This document shows positions 514-57,544 of a stretch of 64,000 bases of DNA, piece by piece. Made by a program: the position numbers and the translations under genes. Origin of the DNA: a phage; sequence record PQ724393.1; one strand, 5' to 3'. The notes beneath the pieces were generated by a model that worked only from the letters and a program-made list of their open reading frames with translations, did no database searches and was not told the DNA's origin. Position 1 is the stretch's first letter; every line of letters begins with the position of its first letter.

Positions 514-1683
514 TTAAAAATATTTCTTGTATGACGCCATTACTTTTTCATCGACATCATTATCAATTTGTGCTACAAGGTAAGAACTGATTTCCACTTC
601 CTGAGGAGCCGCCTGTACAGCATCAGAGTTCAGGTATTCGCGAATCCAAGGATAAGGATGGCGAGTAGGAGCATCAGTAATAGGACACGGTAAGCCACAT
701 TGCTTCATACGAGAAACTGTCAGGTAATCGACAAAAGCACCCATGTTCTGAGTATTTAATCCAGGGCAAGTACCATCTTTGAACAGGTGAGCAGCCCATT
801 CTTTTTCTTGACGGTTAACTTCCATGAAAATATCAACTGCTTCTTGTTCACACTCTTGAGCAATTTTAACCCATTCATCACCATCTGTACCAAGCTGGAG
901 TTGACGGATAATGTACTGGGTGCCTTTAAGGTGAAGCTGTTCATCACGTGCAATGAACTTCATAATCTTAGCATTACCTTCCATGATTTCCATGTTTTTA
1001 TGGAAGTTAAAGGTGCATGCGAAAGATACATAAAAACGAATAGCTTCCAATGCGTTGATTACATGCAGGCAGAGGTAAAGAGAGCGCATTAGTTCGTATT
1101 TAGCGGTTTTAAGACCTTCACTGAACTCATGGTATTCTTCTAAAGCATTTTGGTATTTACGTGTTTTTTCAATAACGTCATCGTAATAACGACCAATAGA
1201 TTCGGCACGTTTCATGATAGCGTCGTCCAACAGAATTTCATCAAATACCTTAGATGGGTCTGTATAGAGGTTACGCATGATATGGGTATATGAACGAGAG
1301 TGAATGGTTTCACTAAATGTCCATGTTGCCACCCAAGTATCAAGGCTAGGGTCGGAAATCAAGGCTTGAAGTGCAGCAGAAGGAGCACGACCTTGAATAC
1401 TATCCAGAAGTGATTGATACTTCAGATTATTGGTAAAAATATTTTGCTGGAATTGTGGAAGCTTATTAAACTGGGCAGCATCCATCATCAAGTTGACTTC
1501 TTCTGGACGCCAGAAAAAACTCAACTGCTTCTCACAAAGCTCTTCGAATACTTTATGGCGTTGGATATCATATCGAGCAATACCCAATCCTGAACCAAAG
1601 AACATCGGTTCGACTAAAACATCAACTGGGGTAGTATTAAAAACTGTAGACATGTTATTCTCATTTGTTAGTGACTCATCCAT
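514..1683 (-). CDS. nrdB: Ribonucleotide reductase beta subunit, uninterrupted (no intron)
   Basis: 389 aa ORF with class I RNR small-subunit features; adjacent to nrdA. Confidence 0.9.
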   Translation of the reverse strand: MDESLTNENNMSTVFNTTPVDVLVEPMFFGSGLGIARYDIQRHKVFEELCEKQLSFFWRPEEVNLMMDAAQFNKLPQFQQNIFTNNLKYQSLLDSIQGRAPSAALQALISDPSLDTWVATWTFSETIHSRSYTHIMRNLYTDPSKVFDEILLDDAIMKRAESIGRYYDDVIEKTRKYQNALEEYHEFSEGLKTAKYELMRSLYLCLHVINALEAIRFYVSFACTFNFHKNMEIMEGNAKIMKFIARDEQLHLKGTQYIIRQLQLGTDGDEWVKIAQECEQEAVDIFMEVNRQEKEWAAHLFKDGTCPGLNTQNMGAFVDYLTVSRMKQCGLPCPITDAPTRHPYPWIREYLNSDAVQAAPQEVEISSYLVAQIDNDVDEKVMASYKKYF

Positions 1684-1705
1684 GAGTCAATTATAATCAG
1701 ATTTA

Positions 1706-3961
1706 TTAAAGCTTACAAGCTGCACAATCGTCGGCTTTAGGAGTTTCGATTTCGTAATCGTCTGTACCAGAGCCATCACGGGTATTGTGGTAGTAAAAAT
1801 TCTTGAGCCCATAATACCATCCGTACAGCAGGTCATCAAGCATTACGGACATCGGAACTTTTCCTTTCTCATAGTTCTGAGGGTCGTAATACGTATTCGC
1901 TGACGCCGATTGGCAAACCCATTTCAACATAATTGCTACTTGGGTAAGATAAGGTTTATTACCTTTCTTAGCGAGGCTCCAAGCGTAATCATAGAGGCCT
2001 TGGTTATGTTCTACATTAGGAACTACCTGACGGAAGTTACCTTCTTTAGATTCTTTAATACTTACCGGCCCACGCGGAGGTTCGATACCGTTGGTAGAGT
2101 TGGAAACTTGGCTGCTTGACTCGCATGGCATAAGTGCTGATAATGTGCTATTACGGATGCCATGTTTAGCCAGGTCTTCCCGCAACGACGACCAGTCACA
2201 AACATAGTTTGGGGCTGCGATTTGGTCAATCTTTTTATTGTACCAGTCGATAGGAAGCTCGCCTCGAGACCACTTAGTGTCTGAATAATACTCGCAAGGT
2301 CCTTTTTCTTCGGCCAACTTGATTGATGCTCGGATAAGTCCATATTGTAATCTCTCAAACAGTTCATGAGTTAAATCGTTTGCGTCTTCATAAGAAGCAA
2401 AGTTGCTTGCCAACCATGCAGCGTAGTTGGTAACACCTACACCCAAGTTACGACGTTTCTTAGCCTTCAAAGCTTCAGGAACAGGATAGCTTTGATAATC
2501 TAATAGGTTATCAAGTGCACGTACCTGTACTTCAGCGAGTTCGTTGATTTTGTCTTGGTCTTGCCAATCAAAGTTATCCAACACGAATGCAGACAGCGTA
2601 CACAATCCGATTTCAGCGTCCGGACTATTCACATCGGTAGTCGGGATAGCAATTTCACAACACAGGTTACTCTGGCGAATAGGAGCCTTTTCACGAATAA
2701 ATGGGGTGAAGTTGTTAGTGTTATCAACAAACTGAGGATAAATTCGTGCAGTGCCTGAACGTTCGGTCATAAACAATTCGAAGAGGTCGCGTGCTTTAAT
2801 ACGTTTCTTACGAATACTAGAGTCTTTTTCAGCCGCTTCATACAATTCACGGAAACGTTCTTGGTCTTCAAAATAAGAATAATAAAGCTCACCACCCATT
2901 TCATGAGGACTGAACAGCGTGATGTAATCATTTTTACCGAAACGTTCCATCATAAGGTCGTTCAACTGGATTCCGTAGTCCATATGGCGAATACGGTTCT
3001 CGTCGACACCTTTGTTGTTTTTCAGAACGAGCAGATTTTCAACTTCCAAATGCCAAATAGGATAATAAGCAGTAGCAGCGCCGCCACGGATTCCACCTTG
3101 TGAACATGATTTAACAGCAGTCTGGAAATGTTTCCAGAATGGAATAACGCCTGTATGTTTGACTTCACCCATGCCAATACGAGAACCTTCAGCACGAATC
3201 ATACCAACGTTGATACCAATACCTGCACGTTTAGAAATGTATTCAATTATTGAGTTAGCAGTTTTGTTAATAGATTTCAGTGAGTCGCCTGCTTCAATAA
3301 CCACACAAGAACTAAATTGACGGGTTGGTGTACGTGCCCCAGCCATAATAGGAGTTGGTAATGAAACCTGACGGGTACTTACAGCATCATAAAAACGAAT
3401 AATATGGGCTAAACGGTTCCCTGGCTCGTCTTGGTGTAAGGCCATGCCAATACACATGATAGCGAACTGAGGGGTTTCATAGATTTTACCGGTTGTTTTA
3501 TCTTTAACCAGATATTTCTCTTTAAGCTGCATTGCGCCAGCGTAAGTCAATTCAAAGTCACGTTCATGCTTGATATGAGATTCTAAGAAAGTAATTTCTT
3601 CTGCAGAATATCGAGACAGCAATTCTGGGTCATATTTACCTTCGTTAACACAATAGGAAATATGGTCAATAAAACTACGCGGTTCAAACTGGCCATAAAC
3701 TTCTTTACGCAGGGCAAACATCAATTGCTTTGCAGCAACATACTGATAATCAGGCTCTTCAACCGAGATAAGGTTGGCCGCGACCTTAACAGTCAAATTC
3801 TGGATATCTTTGGTAGTCATACCATCACGAAGGTGGGATTTGATTTCTTCGTATAATTCGTAGGGATCGATTTGGGTTCCTTCACAACCCCAAGTCAGAA
3901 CTTTAATAATTTTTTGTGCGTCAAAATCTTGGGATACACCACTACTCTTTTGTACTTGCAT
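1706..3961 (-). CDS. nrdA: Ribonucleotide reductase alpha subunit
   Basis: 751 aa ORF, class Ia RNR large subunit with C-terminal CxxC tail; synteny with nrdB/td. Confidence 0.9.
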   Translation of the reverse strand: MQVQKSSGVSQDFDAQKIIKVLTWGCEGTQIDPYELYEEIKSHLRDGMTTKDIQNLTVKVAANLISVEEPDYQYVAAKQLMFALRKEVYGQFEPRSFIDHISYCVNEGKYDPELLSRYSAEEITFLESHIKHERDFELTYAGAMQLKEKYLVKDKTTGKIYETPQFAIMCIGMALHQDEPGNRLAHIIRFYDAVSTRQVSLPTPIMAGARTPTRQFSSCVVIEAGDSLKSINKTANSIIEYISKRAGIGINVGMIRAEGSRIGMGEVKHTGVIPFWKHFQTAVKSCSQGGIRGGAATAYYPIWHLEVENLLVLKNNKGVDENRIRHMDYGIQLNDLMMERFGKNDYITLFSPHEMGGELYYSYFEDQERFRELYEAAEKDSSIRKKRIKARDLFELFMTERSGTARIYPQFVDNTNNFTPFIREKAPIRQSNLCCEIAIPTTDVNSPDAEIGLCTLSAFVLDNFDWQDQDKINELAEVQVRALDNLLDYQSYPVPEALKAKKRRNLGVGVTNYAAWLASNFASYEDANDLTHELFERLQYGLIRASIKLAEEKGPCEYYSDTKWSRGELPIDWYNKKIDQIAAPNYVCDWSSLREDLAKHGIRNSTLSALMPCESSSQVSNSTNGIEPPRGPVSIKESKEGNFRQVVPNVEHNQGLYDYAWSLAKKGNKPYLTQVAIMLKWVCQSASANTYYDPQNYEKGKVPMSVMLDDLLYGWYYGLKNFYYHNTRDGSGTDDYEIETPKADDCAACKL

Positions 3962-4089
3962 AATTTCCTCAATATGTTAGGTTCTACATCTATAATAACA
4001 TAGAACCTGTTAAGCATGGACTGATATTTATAGAATGAAATTCAGTCCGACCATAATAACCAAAAACAGAGTACAGATTATTTGAATTT

Positions 4090-5744
<1,655 letters not shown>

Positions 5745-52562: not shown

Positions 52563-53456
52563 TTAAAGGACCACGTCCTCATAACTTGGCATTTCGTGCC
52601 CAGAATGGATATGGGCACCGAAATAAATGAATTCAGCCAGACCAGGATGGAATACTAAACCTGGGTTCTCATGATAAATGATATGCGGTCTTGATTTCAG
52701 AATCTGATAATACTCAACCTTACTCGGTTTGAATTTAACAATCTCTACATCAGGACGATAGTCTTCACGCTTAAATGAATCATTAGGGTTGGTGATATAA
52801 AGACGAGCACCTTCAGCCGCAGCTTGGTCTACAACTCTTTCGAATTGATAGCACTTATCCGAAATACGGAATGGATGGAAAATACCATCAATTTTAATAG
52901 GCGCTAGACCTTCAGAGTAACGCTCAATTACTGCAGGATTAATTACCTTTTGGTCTACAAAAATCTTATCAGAGGATGCACCTCGTGACACCAGGACGTC
53001 TTTCTGGCATTGATTCAGGACTGTAGTATAAAGTGAACGTTCAACTGAAGCCACATCAATATCAATGAACTCGTCGATATAATAACGAGGAACTTCAGGG
53101 TCCATTGTGATATTAAAGTTGAATTGTACAGTATGAGCACCATCATAACCTGTGATATCGGTTACCAGTCCTGAGCAATCATAGTATTCGATTAGTGAAT
53201 CGACTACAAACTCATTTTCAGACCAGAAATGTTTACGGGTTTCATAAGCATTTTCTTTATACCAAAGTGGTACGAAATTCAGTTCTGGGAATAATTCAAT
53301 GCATTCTTTGATATCGCTCGAATTTCTAGGATAAGCCAGATAATCACCTGGACGAGCACGATTTAAATGGAGTTGAAAATTGCCGTCCTTAAGGACGGCA
53401 TATTCACCTGTTTCGTAACTACGCATACTGAAAATAGGAACGATAAACAAACTCAT
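52563..53456 (-). CDS. Unrecognised protein in the T4 beta-glucosyltransferase position; candidate DNA glycosyltransferase
   Basis: 297 aa, ATGA-coupled to gene 42; no resemblance to T4 Bgt that I can recognise; possible DxD-like FIDIDV. Confidence 0.35.
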   Translation of the reverse strand: MSLFIVPIFSMRSYETGEYAVLKDGNFQLHLNRARPGDYLAYPRNSSDIKECIELFPELNFVPLWYKENAYETRKHFWSENEFVVDSLIEYYDCSGLVTDITGYDGAHTVQFNFNITMDPEVPRYYIDEFIDIDVASVERSLYTTVLNQCQKDVLVSRGASSDKIFVDQKVINPAVIERYSEGLAPIKIDGIFHPFRISDKCYQFERVVDQAAAEGARLYITNPNDSFKREDYRPDVEIVKFKPSKVEYYQILKSRPHIIYHENPGLVFHPGLAEFIYFGAHIHSGHEMPSYEDVVL

Positions 53457-54151
53457 TTCAGGAAACCTCGGACGTAGTCAAAATCACGTTCAAACACGTG
53501 TGCACTTACCATGGTGTGGGAATACGTACCTAAACCAACACCACACTGTTCAGCAATAAATGCCATCAGTTTACCCTGCAGATAGAAATCCAGCTGCATA
53601 ACAACAGCGCAGTTTTGTGAACGCATATGGGTGTGTGCATACAAACGCCCGTCACGAATATAATACGTTACCGAATCGGTGCAAGGGTATTCTAAGGATT
53701 CGTCAGAATCAAGGAGGGCTTGGTCTTGTTCTTGGAGAATCTGGAACACAACTCTTCGCGAGTTGGCCTTTTCTTTAAGCTCTTTAAGTAGGGCTGGGAG
53801 TTGGGCCGCAATTCGAGGTCCATAGAAAGTGTTGAAGTTTGCAGGCAATACGTCACTTTTCGGCTTATCAATGAACTTAGCAACATTAGGGTATTCCTTA
53901 AATGCTTCGGCAGCGTCAGTACCACCAGAAATCATAAATTTCCAAAAGGATTCGGCATATTCATAACTGATACGATTGATACGTGGGTCGGTGAATTTAT
54001 AGGTGCTGACATCCAGTACTTCTATAGAAGCAGAACCAATTTCATAACAACGTCCGATACGAGAATCAACTGCAAACTGTGGAGCTTCCAGGATTTCTTC
54101 GTTCATTTGTTTAAATGCATTTTCAAAACTAACAGCGGTAATGTGTTTCAT
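53453..54151 (-). CDS. 42: dCMP hydroxymethylase gp42 (thymidylate-synthase fold)
   Basis: 232 aa; SRRVVFQI and CTDSVTYYIRDGRLYAHTHMRSQN regions align with T4 gp42 motifs. Confidence 0.7.
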   Translation of the reverse strand: MKHITAVSFENAFKQMNEEILEAPQFAVDSRIGRCYEIGSASIEVLDVSTYKFTDPRINRISYEYAESFWKFMISGGTDAAEAFKEYPNVAKFIDKPKSDVLPANFNTFYGPRIAAQLPALLKELKEKANSRRVVFQILQEQDQALLDSDESLEYPCTDSVTYYIRDGRLYAHTHMRSQNCAVVMQLDFYLQGKLMAFIAEQCGVGLGTYSHTMVSAHVFERDFDYVRGFLK

Positions 54152-54684
54152 TTATTCACCTTATTTTCAATATATTCGTTCAGACGTTTTAATTCTACCA
54201 TATCAACATTAAGCAAATTATTATGGCCGTCATGATTTAAGATTTTAAACACGTTTTCAAAACATGTTTCGTATTGCTGGATAGTTAGGTTGAACTCATC
54301 TTTGGTTAATTTAATAAGGTCATCTTCGAAGTCTTCGTCTAATGGGTTGCGAGTTAAAATAACTTCGATAACGTTAAATTCAGATTTAAACCCTTTCCAA
54401 TCTTCCAGTTCTACATAAGGGTCCATTTCACCACGAAGGAATCCCGAGTAAACAATATTACTAGGATACCCACGGTCTAAGATGTAGACAAAATTAGGGT
54501 CTAAAAACTTATACAGAGTTTCAACTAAAGCCTTGTCATTATCAGTCCCTAATGAAATGCATTTGCCATTAATCTTTTTAGGGAAATCAATAAGACGATA
54601 TTTCTTATCAGATAAAAGTGATTCAATTAAAGTAGACTTCCCGGAATTATCCGGGCCGTCGATAACAATGATTTTTGGTTTCAC
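54148..54684 (-). CDS. Thymidylate-kinase-like P-loop kinase
   Basis: Walker A IIVIDGPDNSGKST; TMPK-like DRG...SNIVYSG region; ATGA-coupled both sides. Confidence 0.6.
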   Translation of the reverse strand: MKPKIIVIDGPDNSGKSTLIESLLSDKKYRLIDFPKKINGKCISLGTDNDKALVETLYKFLDPNFVYILDRGYPSNIVYSGFLRGEMDPYVELEDWKGFKSEFNVIEVILTRNPLDEDFEDDLIKLTKDEFNLTIQQYETCFENVFKILNHDGHNNLLNVDMVELKRLNEYIENKVNK

Positions 54685-55079
54685 GGATGATATGCCTTAT
54701 AACTATCAAGAGTTCCTTCACGAACCAATTCTTTAAAGTGGTCTGGACGGATTGCTCGGTCATCGATGATAAAAGTATAACTCGGCTTGTGTGTAAGCAA
54801 ATTGTGATATTTCAATCCAATTTTTTCAAGGTTCTTAACCAATGCAGGAACTACTTCAACCAAGATTCGACCTGGGCCACATGAAGTCATGCCACGGGCA
54901 GTGAATAATGTAATCTCGTACCCTTCATCATAAAGCTTATTAATCATGGACACCATTTCGGTGTCCGGTTTAAAGTTCTCATAATCACGGTCATGGTTCC
55001 AAATCGTGATTGTGTTATCGATATCAAAACATAAATGTGGCTTATTTTCTACTCGATGCGACATTAAATTTTCTTCCAT
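54681..55079 (-). CDS. Small HAD-superfamily phosphatase
   Basis: HAD motif I FDIDNTIT, motif II LFTAR, Lys in THKP, motif IV FIIDD. Confidence 0.6.
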   Translation of the reverse strand: MEENLMSHRVENKPHLCFDIDNTITIWNHDRDYENFKPDTEMVSMINKLYDEGYEITLFTARGMTSCGPGRILVEVVPALVKNLEKIGLKYHNLLTHKPSYTFIIDDRAIRPDHFKELVREGTLDSYKAYHP

Positions 55080-56767
55080 TGTTTGTGGAGTTCAGTAGAA
55101 CCTGTAGGTTTATATTTTACACCAGTTTCCTGGTCAAGCAAAACCCACTTATCAGGACAACGAGTAATAATTTGAGCCGTGATAGGGTCACGAACTTCAT
55201 CGACAAATTCACCAGTAATAAGCTTACGCTTACGAGGATGCCGCTTCAGCAGCACACTCAGTTGGTACAAACCGTTATAATAAGCACCCAGAGCTTTCAG
55301 AGGGTTATTCTTAAAGTAACCTGCCAGAGCCATCCAAATAACAGCAATCCAGAGCTTGTGCTTAAATGTGCACATAGGAATATCGTCTAAAGGCATAACC
55401 TTTTCAATATCAACGAATACACGAGTTCCATTACGAGTTAATCCACCCCATAGAGGGTCTGAGTTAAATTTGTCATAGCCATCGATAGAATAAAGCACCT
55501 TAGCTTCATCATAAATCGCAGGGCCTTTAGAACTATTACCGAAATAACCACGTGGGTCGATGATTTTAATATCACCTTCGTCCGACAGCATAATATTACT
55601 GTAGTGCGGGTCGCCATGAATAAGTTGGTACGGCTCTTTATGTTCAGACAGAATTTCTAGTGCGTGGCGGAGAAGTTTTTCAGGGTCGCCTACTTTGAAA
55701 TCGTTAACATGGGTAATGCCTTGTGGAGCAAAGCCTTCAATCAATCCAGCAATAGAAGCATTACGAATAAGGACCTTGTCCAATACTTCTTTCTTAACAT
55801 CAGAATACCATTGCTCATCGGACGGATTATCGATAGTTCCACCAAATGAACGTAATGCACTAATGACCTTATAAACCATGAGGACTTTAGTTTCTTTAGA
55901 CATAAACCGGTAGGCATCTGCCATGGTGCGACCAAAGATACGTTCCATTTTAATGAATTCGCCTGGAGCAAAGTCTACAATGCTCGGAACAAATTCAGAA
56001 TCAATAGAATTATACCAATTGATTTCTTTAGATTGGATTTCTTTACCTAATTCGTTGGTAGGTACTTTAATAGCCAGATTCTCAGTGAACTCTAATTTAT
56101 TAAATTCACGGTTAATTTCAGAATCTTCATGGGCCCTAGCCAGTTTCAATTTGTCACCGACATCAACCACAAAGTCCAGCTTACGTTCAGTCAAATGGAC
56201 CATCGAATCCAGGTTGTCTGCAAGGTCTTCGCCATAATTAGAACGGTCGAAACCTGTCCAATTAGCCACCTGATACAAACCAACCACACCACCGCCAGTA
56301 CCAATTTCACGCAAGTACGGTTCTTCAAATGTAAAACGACAGTCGGTCCCATAGGTATAACAGTAGTCGTTATCCCACTCAACTTTATGACCTTCAGGAA
56401 TAATATCACACCAGTTAAACAAGACATTATGCCCGATGATATCTTCGGCAATGCAATCGATAGCATGAGCTGAACCGTTGGCCACATCTACGTTACGAAT
56501 AGTGAATTTAGGCTTATCACTGGTAATCATGTTAATGGATTTAATGTAACCCTTAACGAGGTCATTAAATTTGCTGTGAATAACCAGAATAATTTCATCT
56601 GATTGGTTACTATACAAATCATACAAATGTTTTAGTACTGTATGCTGTTTGTAGTTAACCAATACCTTCGGGATTTCGTTAGTAATTGGATACAACCGTG
56701 AGCCAAGACCCGCGCCTAAAATAACAACCTTTTTCATTATCTGTTCCTCAAGTGAATGTAGGTACAT
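55064..56767 (-). CDS. Bifunctional sugar-1-phosphate nucleotidyltransferase / APH-like sugar kinase (start may be at the internal MKKVV)
   Basis: N-terminal RmlA-like ILGAGLGSRLYPITNEIPK; C-terminal kinase Brenner-type motif LIHGDPHYSNIM and IIDPRG. Confidence 0.65.
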   Translation of the reverse strand: MYLHSLEEQIMKKVVILGAGLGSRLYPITNEIPKVLVNYKQHTVLKHLYDLYSNQSDEIILVIHSKFNDLVKGYIKSINMITSDKPKFTIRNVDVANGSAHAIDCIAEDIIGHNVLFNWCDIIPEGHKVEWDNDYCYTYGTDCRFTFEEPYLREIGTGGGVVGLYQVANWTGFDRSNYGEDLADNLDSMVHLTERKLDFVVDVGDKLKLARAHEDSEINREFNKLEFTENLAIKVPTNELGKEIQSKEINWYNSIDSEFVPSIVDFAPGEFIKMERIFGRTMADAYRFMSKETKVLMVYKVISALRSFGGTIDNPSDEQWYSDVKKEVLDKVLIRNASIAGLIEGFAPQGITHVNDFKVGDPEKLLRHALEILSEHKEPYQLIHGDPHYSNIMLSDEGDIKIIDPRGYFGNSSKGPAIYDEAKVLYSIDGYDKFNSDPLWGGLTRNGTRVFVDIEKVMPLDDIPMCTFKHKLWIAVIWMALAGYFKNNPLKALGAYYNGLYQLSVLLKRHPRKRKLITGEFVDEVRDPITAQIITRCPDKWVLLDQETGVKYKPTGSTELHKQWKKI

Positions 56768-56797: not shown

Positions 56798-57298
56798 TTA
56801 AATCTTATCTTTACCGATTTCAATACACCGTTCTATTGCCGCCGGTACTTTGGTCTTGAGCTTATTGATTTGTTTCTTATAATCACGGGCTTTATCGAAG
56901 CTCTCGGTTTCGAGCATTTCGTAATAACGAGCCTCGTGGATGGAAATCTGTAGATTGATATGGTTTACGCACATCGCATACAGTTTCTGCTTTTTGTACA
57001 AATCATCTTGACGCTTCATTTCTGCCTGGTGTTTGGCTAGTACCGCTTCACGCTTAGACTCTTGTTCACGTTGGAATTCGATTTCCCTTTGAGCATATTT
57101 TGCACAGTTATTACCGCATTGATTATTAGCTCGGGTATACACAAGCCCAGAACCAGCACGGAATTTCATTTCACCGTCATATTGTTTCTGTTCAGCTGCG
57201 ATACGAGCTTTACCAACTTCATCAGCCGAAACTGCATCGCCATATTGGACCGCGCAACCTGATAGGAGCATACTCATTGCGATAATTAACTTTTTCAT
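56798..57298 (-). CDS. Putative lipoprotein with coiled-coil region
   Basis: Signal peptide with lipobox LLSGC; charged helical region. Confidence 0.5.
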   Translation of the reverse strand: MKKLIIAMSMLLSGCAVQYGDAVSADEVGKARIAAEQKQYDGEMKFRAGSGLVYTRANNQCGNNCAKYAQREIEFQREQESKREAVLAKHQAEMKRQDDLYKKQKLYAMCVNHINLQISIHEARYYEMLETESFDKARDYKKQINKLKTKVPAAIERCIEIGKDKI

Positions 57299-57307
57299 GG
57301 AATTCCC

Positions 57308-57544
57308 TTACTGTTTAACAATAATGATTTGTGCATTTGATTTACGTTCAGCGACGATGGCCCAGATTAAAGCCACTACCCAACCAATCATCGTCCAACC
57401 CAACAGGAGGTTTAGGAAGAAAATTCCGACATTACTACGAGTGCCTCGCAGAAGAGCCAGAATCCATGGTAAAAAGTAACCGATGAACATAATAACCAGA
57501 GAACCGAATCCTAAAACACCAGCACTAACGATTAAAGCTTCCAT
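57308..57544 (-). CDS. imm: Superinfection immunity membrane protein Imm
   Basis: 78 aa, two TM segments, NLLLGWTMIGWVVALIWA motif; position next to gene 43. Confidence 0.55.
   Translation of the reverse strand: MEALIVSAGVLGFGSLVIMFIGYFLPWILALLRGTRSNVGIFFLNLLLGWTMIGWVVALIWAIVAERKSNAQIIIVKQ

Follow-up and report, generated by a model that had tools for sequence, protein, structure and literature searches.

The DNA analysed here, referred to below as the window, is a stretch of 64,000 nucleotides of the phage sequence record PQ724393.1 and belongs to a Dhakavirus, i.e., a JS98-like relative of T4 (96% identity to Dhakaviruses). Its minus strand carries a block of five translationally coupled genes, which code for an AfhE-like bifunctional nucleotidyltransferase/kinase of 567 aa (55064..56767), a cap-less phosphatase with the motifs of the HAD superfamily (54681..55079), a P-loop kinase of 178 aa with the fold of thymidylate kinases (TMPKs) and a GTG start (54148..54684), a homolog of thymidylate synthase (TS; 53453..54151) and the glycosyltransferase Aat1 (52563..53456). 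Stop and start codons overlap as GTGA between the HAD and kinase genes, and as ATGA both between the kinase and TS genes and between the TS and Aat1 genes. The initial annotation had described the 178-aa kinase and a 132-aa HAD open reading frame at these positions and strand and proposed that the two are coupled, and the overlapping frames bear this out. The HAD protein probably starts at Met6 (position 55064, 127 aa) rather than at the beginning of the 132-aa open reading frame; this start is the one given in the UP19 annotation, matches that of RB69 gp51 and places a TAATG at the junction to the preceding gene. Promoter and terminator scans returned scores at chance level, from which the boundary of the operon cannot be drawn. 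The genes td, frd, nrdA, and nrdB are also found in the window.

Judged by sequence, the five-gene block is the published arabinosyl-5-hydroxycytosine (ara-5hoC) cluster, an already known system described in 2025–2026, which the initial annotation did not recognize. All five proteins are orthologous to RB69 gp45-53, and the window brings together a TS homolog with the D169N signature, a bifunctional enzyme of the AfhE type, an AfhF-type HAD and an Aat1-type transferase. Dhakaviruses are indeed among the lineages listed as carriers of the ara-5hoC cluster (Lee et al., NAR, 2026). Two genes found in other lineages, coding for an arabinose-5-phosphate isomerase and a U32-like protein, are both absent from the window. 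The AfhE-like protein combines an N-terminal sugar-1-phosphate nucleotidyltransferase domain (Pfam NTP_transferase, 3e-08) with a C-terminal APH-type kinase domain (APH, 8e-06), and is 41–44% identical to RB69 gp52:53 and 71% identical to its ortholog in Providencia phage PSTCR6. AfhE is reported to convert arabinose-5-phosphate to arabinofuranose-1,5-bisphosphate, and arabinofuranose-1-phosphate to UDP-arabinofuranose (UDP-Araf) (Lee et al., 2026, citing He et al., 2026). A 563-aa protein encoded on contig L044, which also bears a homolog of the kinase, was considered as an AfhE-like candidate and rejected following a negative similarity search.

The neighboring TS homolog, initially taken for gene 42 and thus for a hydroxymethylase, turns out to be an ortholog of a flavin-dependent 5-hydroxy-dCMP synthase: it is 80% identical to RB69 gp48, matches PDB entries 9iqu and 9iqc (E 1e-125) and bears the D169N signature in the form MRSQN. 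RB69 gp48 is a proven 5-hydroxy-dCMP synthase, and activity has been shown for orthologs of the window protein (Lee et al., 2026). Together, the signature and this orthology imply a phage devoid of the hydroxymethyl group. The suggestion that the kinase phosphorylates a hydroxymethyl group on the nucleotide or on DNA thus started from a wrong premise and was rejected. Finally, Aat1 aligns with both halves of RB69 gp46:47 (70 and 62% identity) and matches phrog_3891 (9e-158); it is predicted to be the first, base-proximal arabinosyltransferase, a role proposed by Lee et al. (2026).

The four HAD motifs ascribed to the 132-aa protein are all present, namely motif I with D19-x-D21 (FDIDNT), motif II with T60 (FTAR), motif III with K98 (THKP) and motif IV with D106-D107 (IIDD). 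Each aligns with the same motif of the solved structures 9iqw (E 2.8e-54) and 1xpj (E 9e-12), placing the protein in the HAD superfamily. The protein is 62% identical over its full length to RB69 gp51 (AfhF; PDB 9iqw), matches a PHROG family (E 7.6e-42), has orthologs in 388 phage records, and its gene adjoins and overlaps that of the AfhE-like enzyme. AfhF is reported to remove the 5-phosphate of arabinofuranose-1,5-bisphosphate, thereby yielding the 1-phosphate (Lee et al., 2026, citing He et al., 2026); this Mg2+-dependent reaction is known for the HY126 enzyme only and is relayed second-hand in Lee et al. (2026). Full-length orthology and position support the prediction that the HAD of the window is an AfhF-type arabinofuranose-1,5-bisphosphate 5-phosphatase, and the idea that it trims a sugar bisphosphate in a GmhB-like step gains support from its 62%-identical ortholog. 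Membership in GmhB/HAD-IIIA itself was not found, as the protein scores 22.4 bits with TIGR01662 (cut-off 44.6 bits) and matches no GmhB model. The best curated model is TIGR01689 (E 6e-15), which describes the capsule biosynthesis phosphatases EcbF/BcbF; the score of 55.3 bits stays below its threshold of 162 bits, which suggests a related subfamily. In Acj9, the HAD gene stays with the isomerase and AfhE genes in a separate sugar module, and in cyanophages it lies beside separate genes for a carbohydrate kinase and a nucleotidyltransferase.

The adjacent kinase bears the Walker A motif G10-P-D-N-S-G-K16-S-T, and the stretch 'DRG...SNIVYSG', earlier likened to the DRY motif of TMPKs, corresponds to D70-R71-G...S75-N76..Y79. 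The likeness to TMPKs holds, with the residues of both motifs invariant in orthologs of merely 36–43% identity. The protein has a TMPK fold with a P-loop and a DR motif, along with TMPK-type features that include Asp12 in the P-loop, an FPK motif and DR...SN..Y, and it matches a PHROG family (E 5.5e-40). In TMPK structures, the matching residues touch a deoxypyrimidine nucleotide at its 3′-OH, phosphate, base N3 and 2′ position; the roles given here to residues of the kinase rest on motif alignment and on the TMPK literature. Curated TMPK thresholds are not reached (15.1 vs. 27 bits for PF02223 and 19 vs. 83 bits for TIGR00041). The catalytic Arg of TMPKs is found neither in the P-loop (class I), where Asn13 stands instead, nor in the LID (class II), which is acidic and reads PLDEDFEDDLIK, and the segment that follows the stacking Phe is devoid of the conserved Arg that contacts thymine O4 in TMPKs. 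The kinase is of the RB69 gp45 type: it is an ortholog, co-occurs with a D169N synthase and keeps the two motifs that are invariant in this group, F-x-DD-L-I and FPK. It is fast evolving, with 38% identity between Dhakavirus and Mosigvirus vs. 62–80% for the HAD and the TS homolog. Both the kinase and HAD genes are under strong purifying selection (dN/dS 0.06 and 0.05, respectively, each against a relative with unsaturated dS).

A tblastn search with the kinase as query (E ≤ 1e-3) recovered orthologs in 344 phage records, and every sampled row was a T4-like phage with a 5hoC cluster; phages that hypermodify thymidine (ViI-, M6-, SP10-, and PaMx11-type) were absent among the sampled rows. Genus counts for the kinase equal those for the synthase and the HAD. 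Since only 344 records contain the kinase, vs. 1470 Straboviridae records with gp1, the claim that T4 has neither the kinase nor the HAD gene at this locus is consistent with the distribution. The database annotation of the protein as a thymidylate kinase, its TMPK-like fold and the presence of td, frd, nrdA, and nrdB in the same window could be taken to mean that it is an ordinary dTMP kinase, or a broad dNMP kinase, that raises the supply of dTTP and is not specifically tied to modification. This is very unlikely, as the gene always lies inside the cluster in the sampled records, the protein is devoid of the thymine-O4 and catalytic arginines of TMPKs, and dTMP is, by annotation, already phosphorylated by gp1.

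Homologs of the kinase encoded in unrelated phages lie next to dCMP-type TS homologs, in MazG–kinase–TS arrangements with overlapping open reading frames as well as in PolB–kinase–TS arrangements, and one homolog is a kinase–TS fusion protein. A trio of genes for the TS homolog, a GT1 glycosyltransferase and the kinase recurs in Straboviridae, Pootjesviridae and PolA phages. Because the Pootjesviridae with this trio use galactose/glucose, not arabinose, the kinase follows the base, not the sugar. Among the contigs examined, kinases with the acidic F-x-[DE]D-x-I motif pair with D169N (5-hydroxy) synthases (the window, L046 and L049), whereas homologs devoid of this motif pair with D169 synthases (L037, L044, and P0131). 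In most lineages, the kinase is coupled to a glycosyltransferase, not to the synthase. This adjacency, the position of the kinase directly after the UDP-Araf-forming genes in the window and a presumably high demand for UDP-sugars during infection would suit an enzyme that rephosphorylates the UMP/UDP released by arabinosyltransferases, thereby keeping UDP-Araf synthesis going and relieving inhibition by the product. Such uridine recycling is nevertheless highly improbable: these steps are already covered by Ndk and PyrH of the host, homologs are also encoded beside TS and MazG in clusters that contain no sugar genes, and the kinase subfamily tracks the product type of the TS homolog. Moreover, the conserved Tyr79 matches a residue that, in TMPK structures, lies by the 2′ position and favors deoxynucleotides. 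A role as a sugar kinase of the arabinose branch was likewise rejected, since the kinase domain of AfhE suffices and homologs lie in clusters without sugar genes.

Close homologs of the kinase occur as fusions with an MBD4-like DNA-glycosylase domain (HhH-GPD), and in one the fusion partner is a UDG-like domain. Pairing a kinase with a glycosylase-like enzyme follows the logic of thymidine hypermodification, and an acidic LID and missing catalytic arginines are more typical of P-loop kinases that act on hydroxyl acceptors; hence the protein might phosphorylate 5hoC in DNA, like 5-hmdU DNA kinases, or act as a sugar or nucleoside kinase. We regard this as barely probable. The final linkage is reportedly a direct ether and the glycosyltransferase needs a free 5-OH, the system is devoid of the hydroxymethyl group, and the only sugar phosphorylation needed is already covered by the kinase domain of AfhE. 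The protein also falls outside the 5-hmdU DNA kinases (5-HMUDK) by its 5-hydroxy-type synthase and by the sampled tblastn rows. The MBD4-like domain is found neither in the window nor in the T4-like loci, for which reason the fusion was rejected as a sign of a DNA-level kinase. As MBD4-type enzymes excise deaminated 5-substituted cytosines, it is better explained as repair of these bases, i.e., as quality control of the same base and not joint catalysis.

From orthology, motifs, fold, synteny and selection, we consider it reasonably likely that the five-gene operon builds ara-5hoC DNA with the HAD as a phosphatase of the sugar branch and the kinase as, most likely, a 5-hydroxy-dCMP kinase; what AfhE, AfhF and the synthase do is known from the literature on HY126, RB69, and DLP3. 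On the one hand, the sugar branch would start from host arabinose-5-phosphate, whose use we infer; its likely source is E. coli KdsD/GutQ, as the phage lineage itself encodes no isomerase. The AfhE-like protein would phosphorylate C1 through its kinase domain, and the HAD (with Mg2+ and Asp19 as nucleophile) would take the 5-phosphate off arabinofuranose-1,5-bisphosphate. The AfhE-like protein would then act again and, through its nucleotidyltransferase domain, turn the resulting 1-phosphate into UDP-arabinofuranose. On the other hand, the TS homolog would convert dCMP to 5-hydroxy-dCMP in the base branch, the TMPK-fold kinase would most likely use ATP to take this 5-substituted dCMP to the diphosphate, thereby feeding 5hodCTP to the polymerase, and Aat1 would then add the first arabinose. 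We infer the substrate of the kinase from its context in several lineages, from the fusions and from the way in which its subfamilies track the synthase type. The earlier proposal that the kinase supplies the nucleotide partner is therefore plausible for the modified-dCMP branch, which the evidence favors, and not for the sugar nucleotide. Lee et al. (2026) label the kinase only 'nucleotide kinase', and no assay of the RB69 gp45-type family is reported in the literature covered; a paper on Thanatos, one on T4 glucosyltransferase, a transposon-mutagenesis preprint and an XNA preprint do not mention the kinase.

The proposed role looks redundant, since Dhakavirus JS98 has a dNMP kinase of the gp1 type, whose RB69 ortholog already converts 5hodCMP to the diphosphate (Lee et al., 2026). 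The kinase is nonetheless kept in all 344 genomes. Other points that weigh against a 5-hydroxy-dCMP kinase are the scores below the TMPK thresholds, the missing P-loop Arg and basic LID, the fast divergence and, in most lineages, the coupling to the glycosyltransferase instead of the synthase. The retention of the kinase in every ara-5hoC genome despite gp1 leaves room for the thought that Aat1 arabinosylates the free nucleotide and that the kinase phosphorylates 5-O-arabinosyl-dCMP, which would be too bulky for gp1, so that a glycosylated dCTP analogue is polymerized. The usual translational coupling of the kinase to Aat1 and the recurrence of the trio in Pootjesviridae and PolA phages agree with such a route, the acidic LID motif, invariant among the orthologs, could serve to bind the hydroxyls of a sugar, and single glycosyltransferases are reported as inactive on 5hoC-DNA with UDP-Araf or UDP-Arap; by the authors' own statement, their data do not distinguish whether the first arabinosylation takes place at the mononucleotide level (Lee et al., 2026). 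If true, this route would explain why a trio of D169N TS, GT1 and kinase occurs in at least three to four unrelated lineages with different sugars, as well as the inactivity of GT1 on 5hoC-DNA in vitro and the invariant acidic lid. It is unlikely all the same. The TS homolog and a gp1-type kinase alone suffice to place 5hodC in the DNA of E. coli, which means that 5hodCTP is both formed and polymerized; moreover, T4-type glycosylation is post-replicative, and the later arabinoses go onto DNA (Lee et al., 2026). The negative glycosyltransferase result, given there as 'data not shown', could have a technical cause. Phosphorylation of 5-hydroxy-dCMP stays the preferred reading for the kinase.

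T4-like phages gain protection from restriction enzymes and CRISPR through the ara-5hoC pathway, and the present finding mostly re-identifies that pathway. For the HAD, AfhF provides a biochemically characterized counterpart (Lee et al., 2026, citing He et al., 2026), which leaves the kinase as the only conserved member of the cluster without an assigned reaction. Its pairing with the first glycosyltransferase and its tracking of synthase type bear on the question raised by Lee et al. (2026), i.e., whether the first sugar is placed on the nucleotide or on DNA. As Dhakaviruses are devoid of a phage arabinose-5-phosphate isomerase, their modification should depend on host KdsD/GutQ, a dependence that could offer a host-range or engineering handle for therapeutic Dhakaviruses.

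Among known systems, the HAD is closest to AfhF of coliphage HY126, RB69 gp51 and DLP3 gp81, with which it shares a cap-less architecture of about 130 aa and all four motifs, and AfhF-type genes, like the HAD gene of the window, lie directly downstream of an AfhE-type bifunctional gene. In contrast to these systems, the HAD gene of the window is followed by the kinase gene, not by a U32-like gene or the synthase gene, and no phage arabinose-5-phosphate isomerase accompanies it. GmhB, the D-glycero-D-manno-heptose-1,7-bisphosphate 7-phosphatase, offers a shared logic in which a cap-less HAD strips the non-anomeric phosphate and the anomeric phosphate is then nucleotidylated; the predicted substrate of the HAD is, however, a pentofuranose, and the HAD is not a member of the GmhB family. 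For the kinase, the counterparts are the 'nucleotide kinases' RB69 gp45 and DLP3 gp78, which have the same invariant motifs and TMPK-like fold matches at 38% identity. Its gene follows that of the HAD in the window, Klebsiella Marfa-like phages and Providencia phage PSTCR6, and that of Aat1 in Mosigvirus, Winklervirus, Acinetobacter phages and Thanatos. Thymidylate kinases (PF02223/TIGR00041) have in common with it the fold, an Asp at position 3 of the P-loop, FP(K/R), and DR followed by S-N-x-x-Y, whereas the kinase of the window is shorter (178 aa), has an acidic LID and is devoid of the P-loop, LID and thymine-O4 arginines. The best solved relative at the sequence level is YorR of the Bacillus prophage SPbeta (PDB 2axp/3kb2; profile E 1.2e-6), which resembles the kinase in size and in its F-E and DR...SN..Y motifs, but is encoded in a replication module without TS or glycosyltransferase and has no F-x-DD-x-I motif. 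Searching the PDB with the central segment of the kinase alone yielded no informative match. The T4 gp1 dNMP kinase, which phosphorylates 5-substituted dCMP in T-even phages, is the candidate functional analogue of the kinase.

Two reading frames with the kinase and HAD motifs listed in the initial annotation are present, all motifs included: that of the P-loop kinase at window 54148-54684 (minus strand, 178 aa, GTG start) and that of the phosphatase at 54681-55079 (minus strand, 132 aa from Met1), which share four bases, GTGA. The start codon of the phosphatase is ambiguous: read from Met1, the frame shares 16 nt (55064-55079) with the upstream 567-aa gene, and read from Met6 (55064), it forms a TAATG junction with that gene. 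The annotation of phage UP19 uses Met6, which also matches the N-terminus of RB69 gp51, so the 127-aa form is the likelier product. ATGA overlaps join the kinase gene to that of a thymidylate synthase (TS) homolog (53453-54151, 232 aa), and the latter to the gene of a 297-aa protein. On the transcribed strand, the order runs from the DNA polymerase through the Imm superinfection immunity gene (57308-57544, minus strand, 78 aa, Pfam Imm_superinfect), a predicted lipoprotein (56798-57298, minus strand, 166 aa), the 567-aa protein with NTP_transferase and APH domains, the phosphatase, the kinase, the TS homolog and the 297-aa protein to UvsX. The Imm and lipoprotein genes thus separate the DNA polymerase from the modification operon; the lipoprotein bears a lipoprotein-type signal (MKKLIIAMSMLLSGC) and had no match in a Pfam search. 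Identity to Dhakaviruses (JS98, JS10, CLB_P2, fDHCT2, and others) is 94-96% across the 4.5-kb region, and comparison with one relative indicates strong purifying selection on the kinase (dN/dS 0.06, dS 0.63) and the phosphatase (dN/dS 0.05, dS 0.27).

The DNA of RB69 and of Acinetobacter phage DLP3 contains mono- to tri-arabinosylated 5-hydroxycytosine (ara-5hoC), in which the sugar is bound straight to C5 by an ether bond and 5-hydroxy-dCMP is supplied by a flavin-binding TS homolog; Dhakaviruses are among the lineages carrying a syntenic cluster (Lee et al., NAR 2026, PMC13326640). All five window proteins are orthologous to the RB69 set, namely the TS homolog to gp48 (80% identity), the 297-aa protein to the gp47 and gp46 halves of Aat1 (70% and 62%), the phosphatase to gp51 (62%), the 567-aa protein to gp52:53 (41-44%) and the kinase to gp45 (38%). 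Close PDB relatives of the synthase (9iqu, 9iqc, and 9ir2; E 1e-125) and of the phosphatase (9iqw; E 2.8e-54) are Mosigvirus-type sequences with neighboring entry codes, and the 9iqw alignment string is RB69 gp51, residue for residue across the aligned region. The window synthase reads MRSQN, the D169N signature that is diagnostic of the 5-hydroxy type (Lee et al., NAR 2026, PMC13326640). What had been called gene 42 is therefore a dCMP 5-hydroxylase, and the phage has no hydroxymethyl group. The overall interpretation offered initially holds for the phosphatase and for the thymidylate kinase (TMPK) likeness of its neighbor, but not for its hydroxymethylcytosine premise. Among the canonical nucleotide metabolism genes nrdB, nrdA, td, and frd (514-5528, minus strand), td (4090-4950) reads QRSVD and encodes a true thymidylate synthase, so that the phage possesses two TS-family enzymes of different chemistry.

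According to the account of He et al. (2026) given in PMC13326640, AfhE of HY126 converts arabinofuranose-5-P to the 1,5-bisphosphate and later makes UDP-Araf, and AfhF, an HAD enzyme that depends on Mg2+, takes off a phosphate to leave Araf-1-P. The window phosphatase is cap-less, and its four HAD motifs align with those of 9iqw and 1xpj. Among curated families, TIGR01689 (capsule biosynthesis phosphatase EcbF/BcbF) fits it best, with a score under the cut-off, and in the same search the protein fell outside the GmhB/HAD-IIIA models. Orthology to AfhF thus upholds the sugar-bisphosphate trimming proposed at the outset, but not membership in the GmhB family. Among the components of the sugar module, the phosphatase is the most portable. 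The cluster of Acinetobacter phage Acj9 (L008, 5396-10667) is divided by gene 40 into a sugar module (isomerase - AfhE - phosphatase) and a base module (synthase - Aat1 - kinase). In cyanophages, distant phosphatase homologs adjoin separate “carbohydrate kinase” and “nucleotidyltransferase” genes, a locus that looks like an unfused AfhE/AfhF sugar-activation module. The homologs of Synechococcus phage S-CAM1 (L009, 3075-4646) and of P-SSM2 are 33-38% identical, and a heptose epimerase gene also adjoins them. Unlike the cluster of most other ara-5hoC lineages, the window (1-64000, queried with RB69 gp55 and gp50) contains neither an arabinose-5-phosphate isomerase nor a U32-peptidase-like gene. 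In phage record counts, about 40 of the 177 Escherichia records lack the isomerase and Klebsiella is not among the counts listed, from which we infer that it is altogether absent from Dhakaviruses and Klebsiella Marfa-like phages. These isomerase-free lineages would then depend on host KdsD/GutQ for their sugar substrate.

The same Straboviridae carry the kinase, phosphatase, and synthase, and the three agree exactly in their counts per genus (Escherichia 177, Acinetobacter 57, Shigella 15, and others). The genes follow the order synthase - Aat1 - kinase, with overlaps, in Mosigvirus, Winklervirus, Acinetobacter phages, Acj9, and Shewanella phage Thanatos, and the order AfhE - HAD - kinase in Dhakavirus, Klebsiella Marfa-like phages, and Providencia phage PSTCR6. 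PSTCR6 bears two tandem kinase paralogs right after the phosphatase (L006, 7004-7564 and 7649-8248), which share 40% and 37% identity with the window kinase. The coupling of phosphatase and kinase, real in the window as the GTGA overlap, is therefore lineage-specific, since other lineages place the kinase after Aat1. In comparisons of the window with L002, L006, and L010, divergence is uneven across the operon: identity between Dhakavirus and Mosigvirus is 80% for the synthase, ~67% for Aat1, 62% for the HAD, 41-44% for AfhE, and 38% for the kinase, and the AfhE of PSTCR6 is 71% identical to the 567-aa protein, which together suggests that lineages ordered AfhE - HAD - kinase may have a distinct AfhE subtype.

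Orthologs of the kinase in RB69 (gp45) and DLP3 (gp78) are called no more than “nucleotide kinase”, on structural grounds (Lee et al., NAR 2026, PMC13326640); a 2021 comparative study placed the gene “presumably” in the pathway, and we found no assay of it in the accessible literature. A profile of the family matches YorR (E 1.2e-6) as well as the TMPK of vaccinia (E 5e-6). The kinase itself scores below curated TMPK thresholds. Across orthologs only 36-43% identical, the invariant residues are G10-P-D12, K16, F34-P35-K36, D70-R71, S75-N76, and Y79 in the N-terminal part and R112, F119, D121-D122-L123-I124, and F131-N132 in the C-terminal part. The P-loop Asp, FP(R/K), the Arg of DR, and S-N-x-x-Y would correspond to residues that hold a deoxypyrimidine nucleotide in TMPK structures, especially that of Mycobacterium tuberculosis, through contacts with its 3'-OH, its phosphate, base N3, and the 2' position; we treat this correspondence as a lead rather than a computed finding. 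In contrast to TMPK, the aligned kinase lacks the P-loop Arg (Asn13), the basic lid, and the Arg at the thymine-O4 position, its invariant lid being acidic (F-x-DD-L-I).

The kinase follows the modified base and not the sugar, because it accompanies hexose-using and arabinose-using systems as well as sugar-free TS/MazG modules, and because its subfamily changes with the synthase product. Pootjesviridae Rhizobium phages have 5hoC hexosylated with galactose and glucose (Lee et al., NAR 2026, PMC13326640). Downstream of their D169N synthase come an Aat1 homolog (23% identity over 300 aa) and then a P-loop protein, probably a remote kinase homolog (hhalign 85%, E 7e-6); they also carry a separate dNMP kinase. 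More distant homologs adjoin dCMP-type TS homologs in a PolA phage contig (MazG-like pyrophosphatase - kinase - TS, overlapping; kinase hhalign 98%) and in a T4-like contig (PolB - kinase - TS - ... - beta-glucosyltransferase-like). In the contigs examined, kinases with acidic F-x-[DE]D-x-I accompany D169N synthases (Straboviridae and the L046 and L049 fusions described below), and homologs without this motif accompany D169 synthases (L037, L044, and P0131). A distant homolog also lies in a T4-like cluster with QueF, amidoligase, dCTP deaminase, phosphoribosyltransferase, and radical-SAM genes (L043, 3301-8466), a setting that resembles deazaguanine modification.

The simplest mechanism, and our best guess, is that the kinase would phosphorylate the 5-substituted dCMP made by the adjoining synthase. 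Redundancy is a difficulty here, since a gp1-type dNMP kinase is present in Dhakavirus JS98 and all Straboviridae, and the gp1 ortholog of RB69 accepts 5hodCMP and yields its diphosphate (Lee et al., NAR 2026, PMC13326640). Still, that all 344 genomes retain a second, fast-evolving kinase speaks for a task that gp1 performs less well. Such a task might be the handling of a glycosylated nucleotide, a more novel proposal that we consider improbable beside phosphorylation of 5-substituted dCMP; it is kept open by the recurrence of the synthase - first glycosyltransferase - kinase trio, by the inactivity of single glycosyltransferases on 5hoC-DNA, and by experiments that do not settle if the mononucleotide is what receives the first arabinose (Lee et al., NAR 2026, PMC13326640).

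An exhaustive kinase profile search (439 representatives, E<=1e-3) recovered fusions of the kinase to a TS domain (P0131), to a UDG-like domain (P0139), and, in a group of proteins of ~320 aa, to a domain with homology to MBD4 glycosylase (E 5e-9) that keeps the HhH motif and catalytic Asp. The last fusion could be taken as a sign that the kinase acts on DNA, a weaker reading; the MBD4-like domain is absent from all T4-like loci. MBD4-type enzymes excise deaminated 5-substituted cytosines opposite G, and for this reason quality control of that same base is the better reading of the fusion.

The ara-5hoC system is already known, its presence in the genus Dhakavirus included, and two kinase::MBD4-like fusions lie in further 5hoC-type clusters. 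On a 47-kb contig (GCA_034680565.1; L046, 3129-10144), the fusion accompanies dCMP deaminase, dUTPase/DCD, a D169N synthase extended by ~150 aa at its N-terminus, an FMN reductase that possibly supplies reduced flavin to the hydroxylase, arabinose-5-P isomerase, and an AfhE-like protein: a 5hoC/arabinose-type cluster with a gene order unlike that of T4-like loci. PolA-type contigs (L049, 4552-9377, with PolA as well; L047, 127-2138) combine a D169N synthase and the fusion with a GT-B glycosyltransferase and a radical-SAM enzyme, and may represent a further, undescribed glycosyl-5hoC variant.
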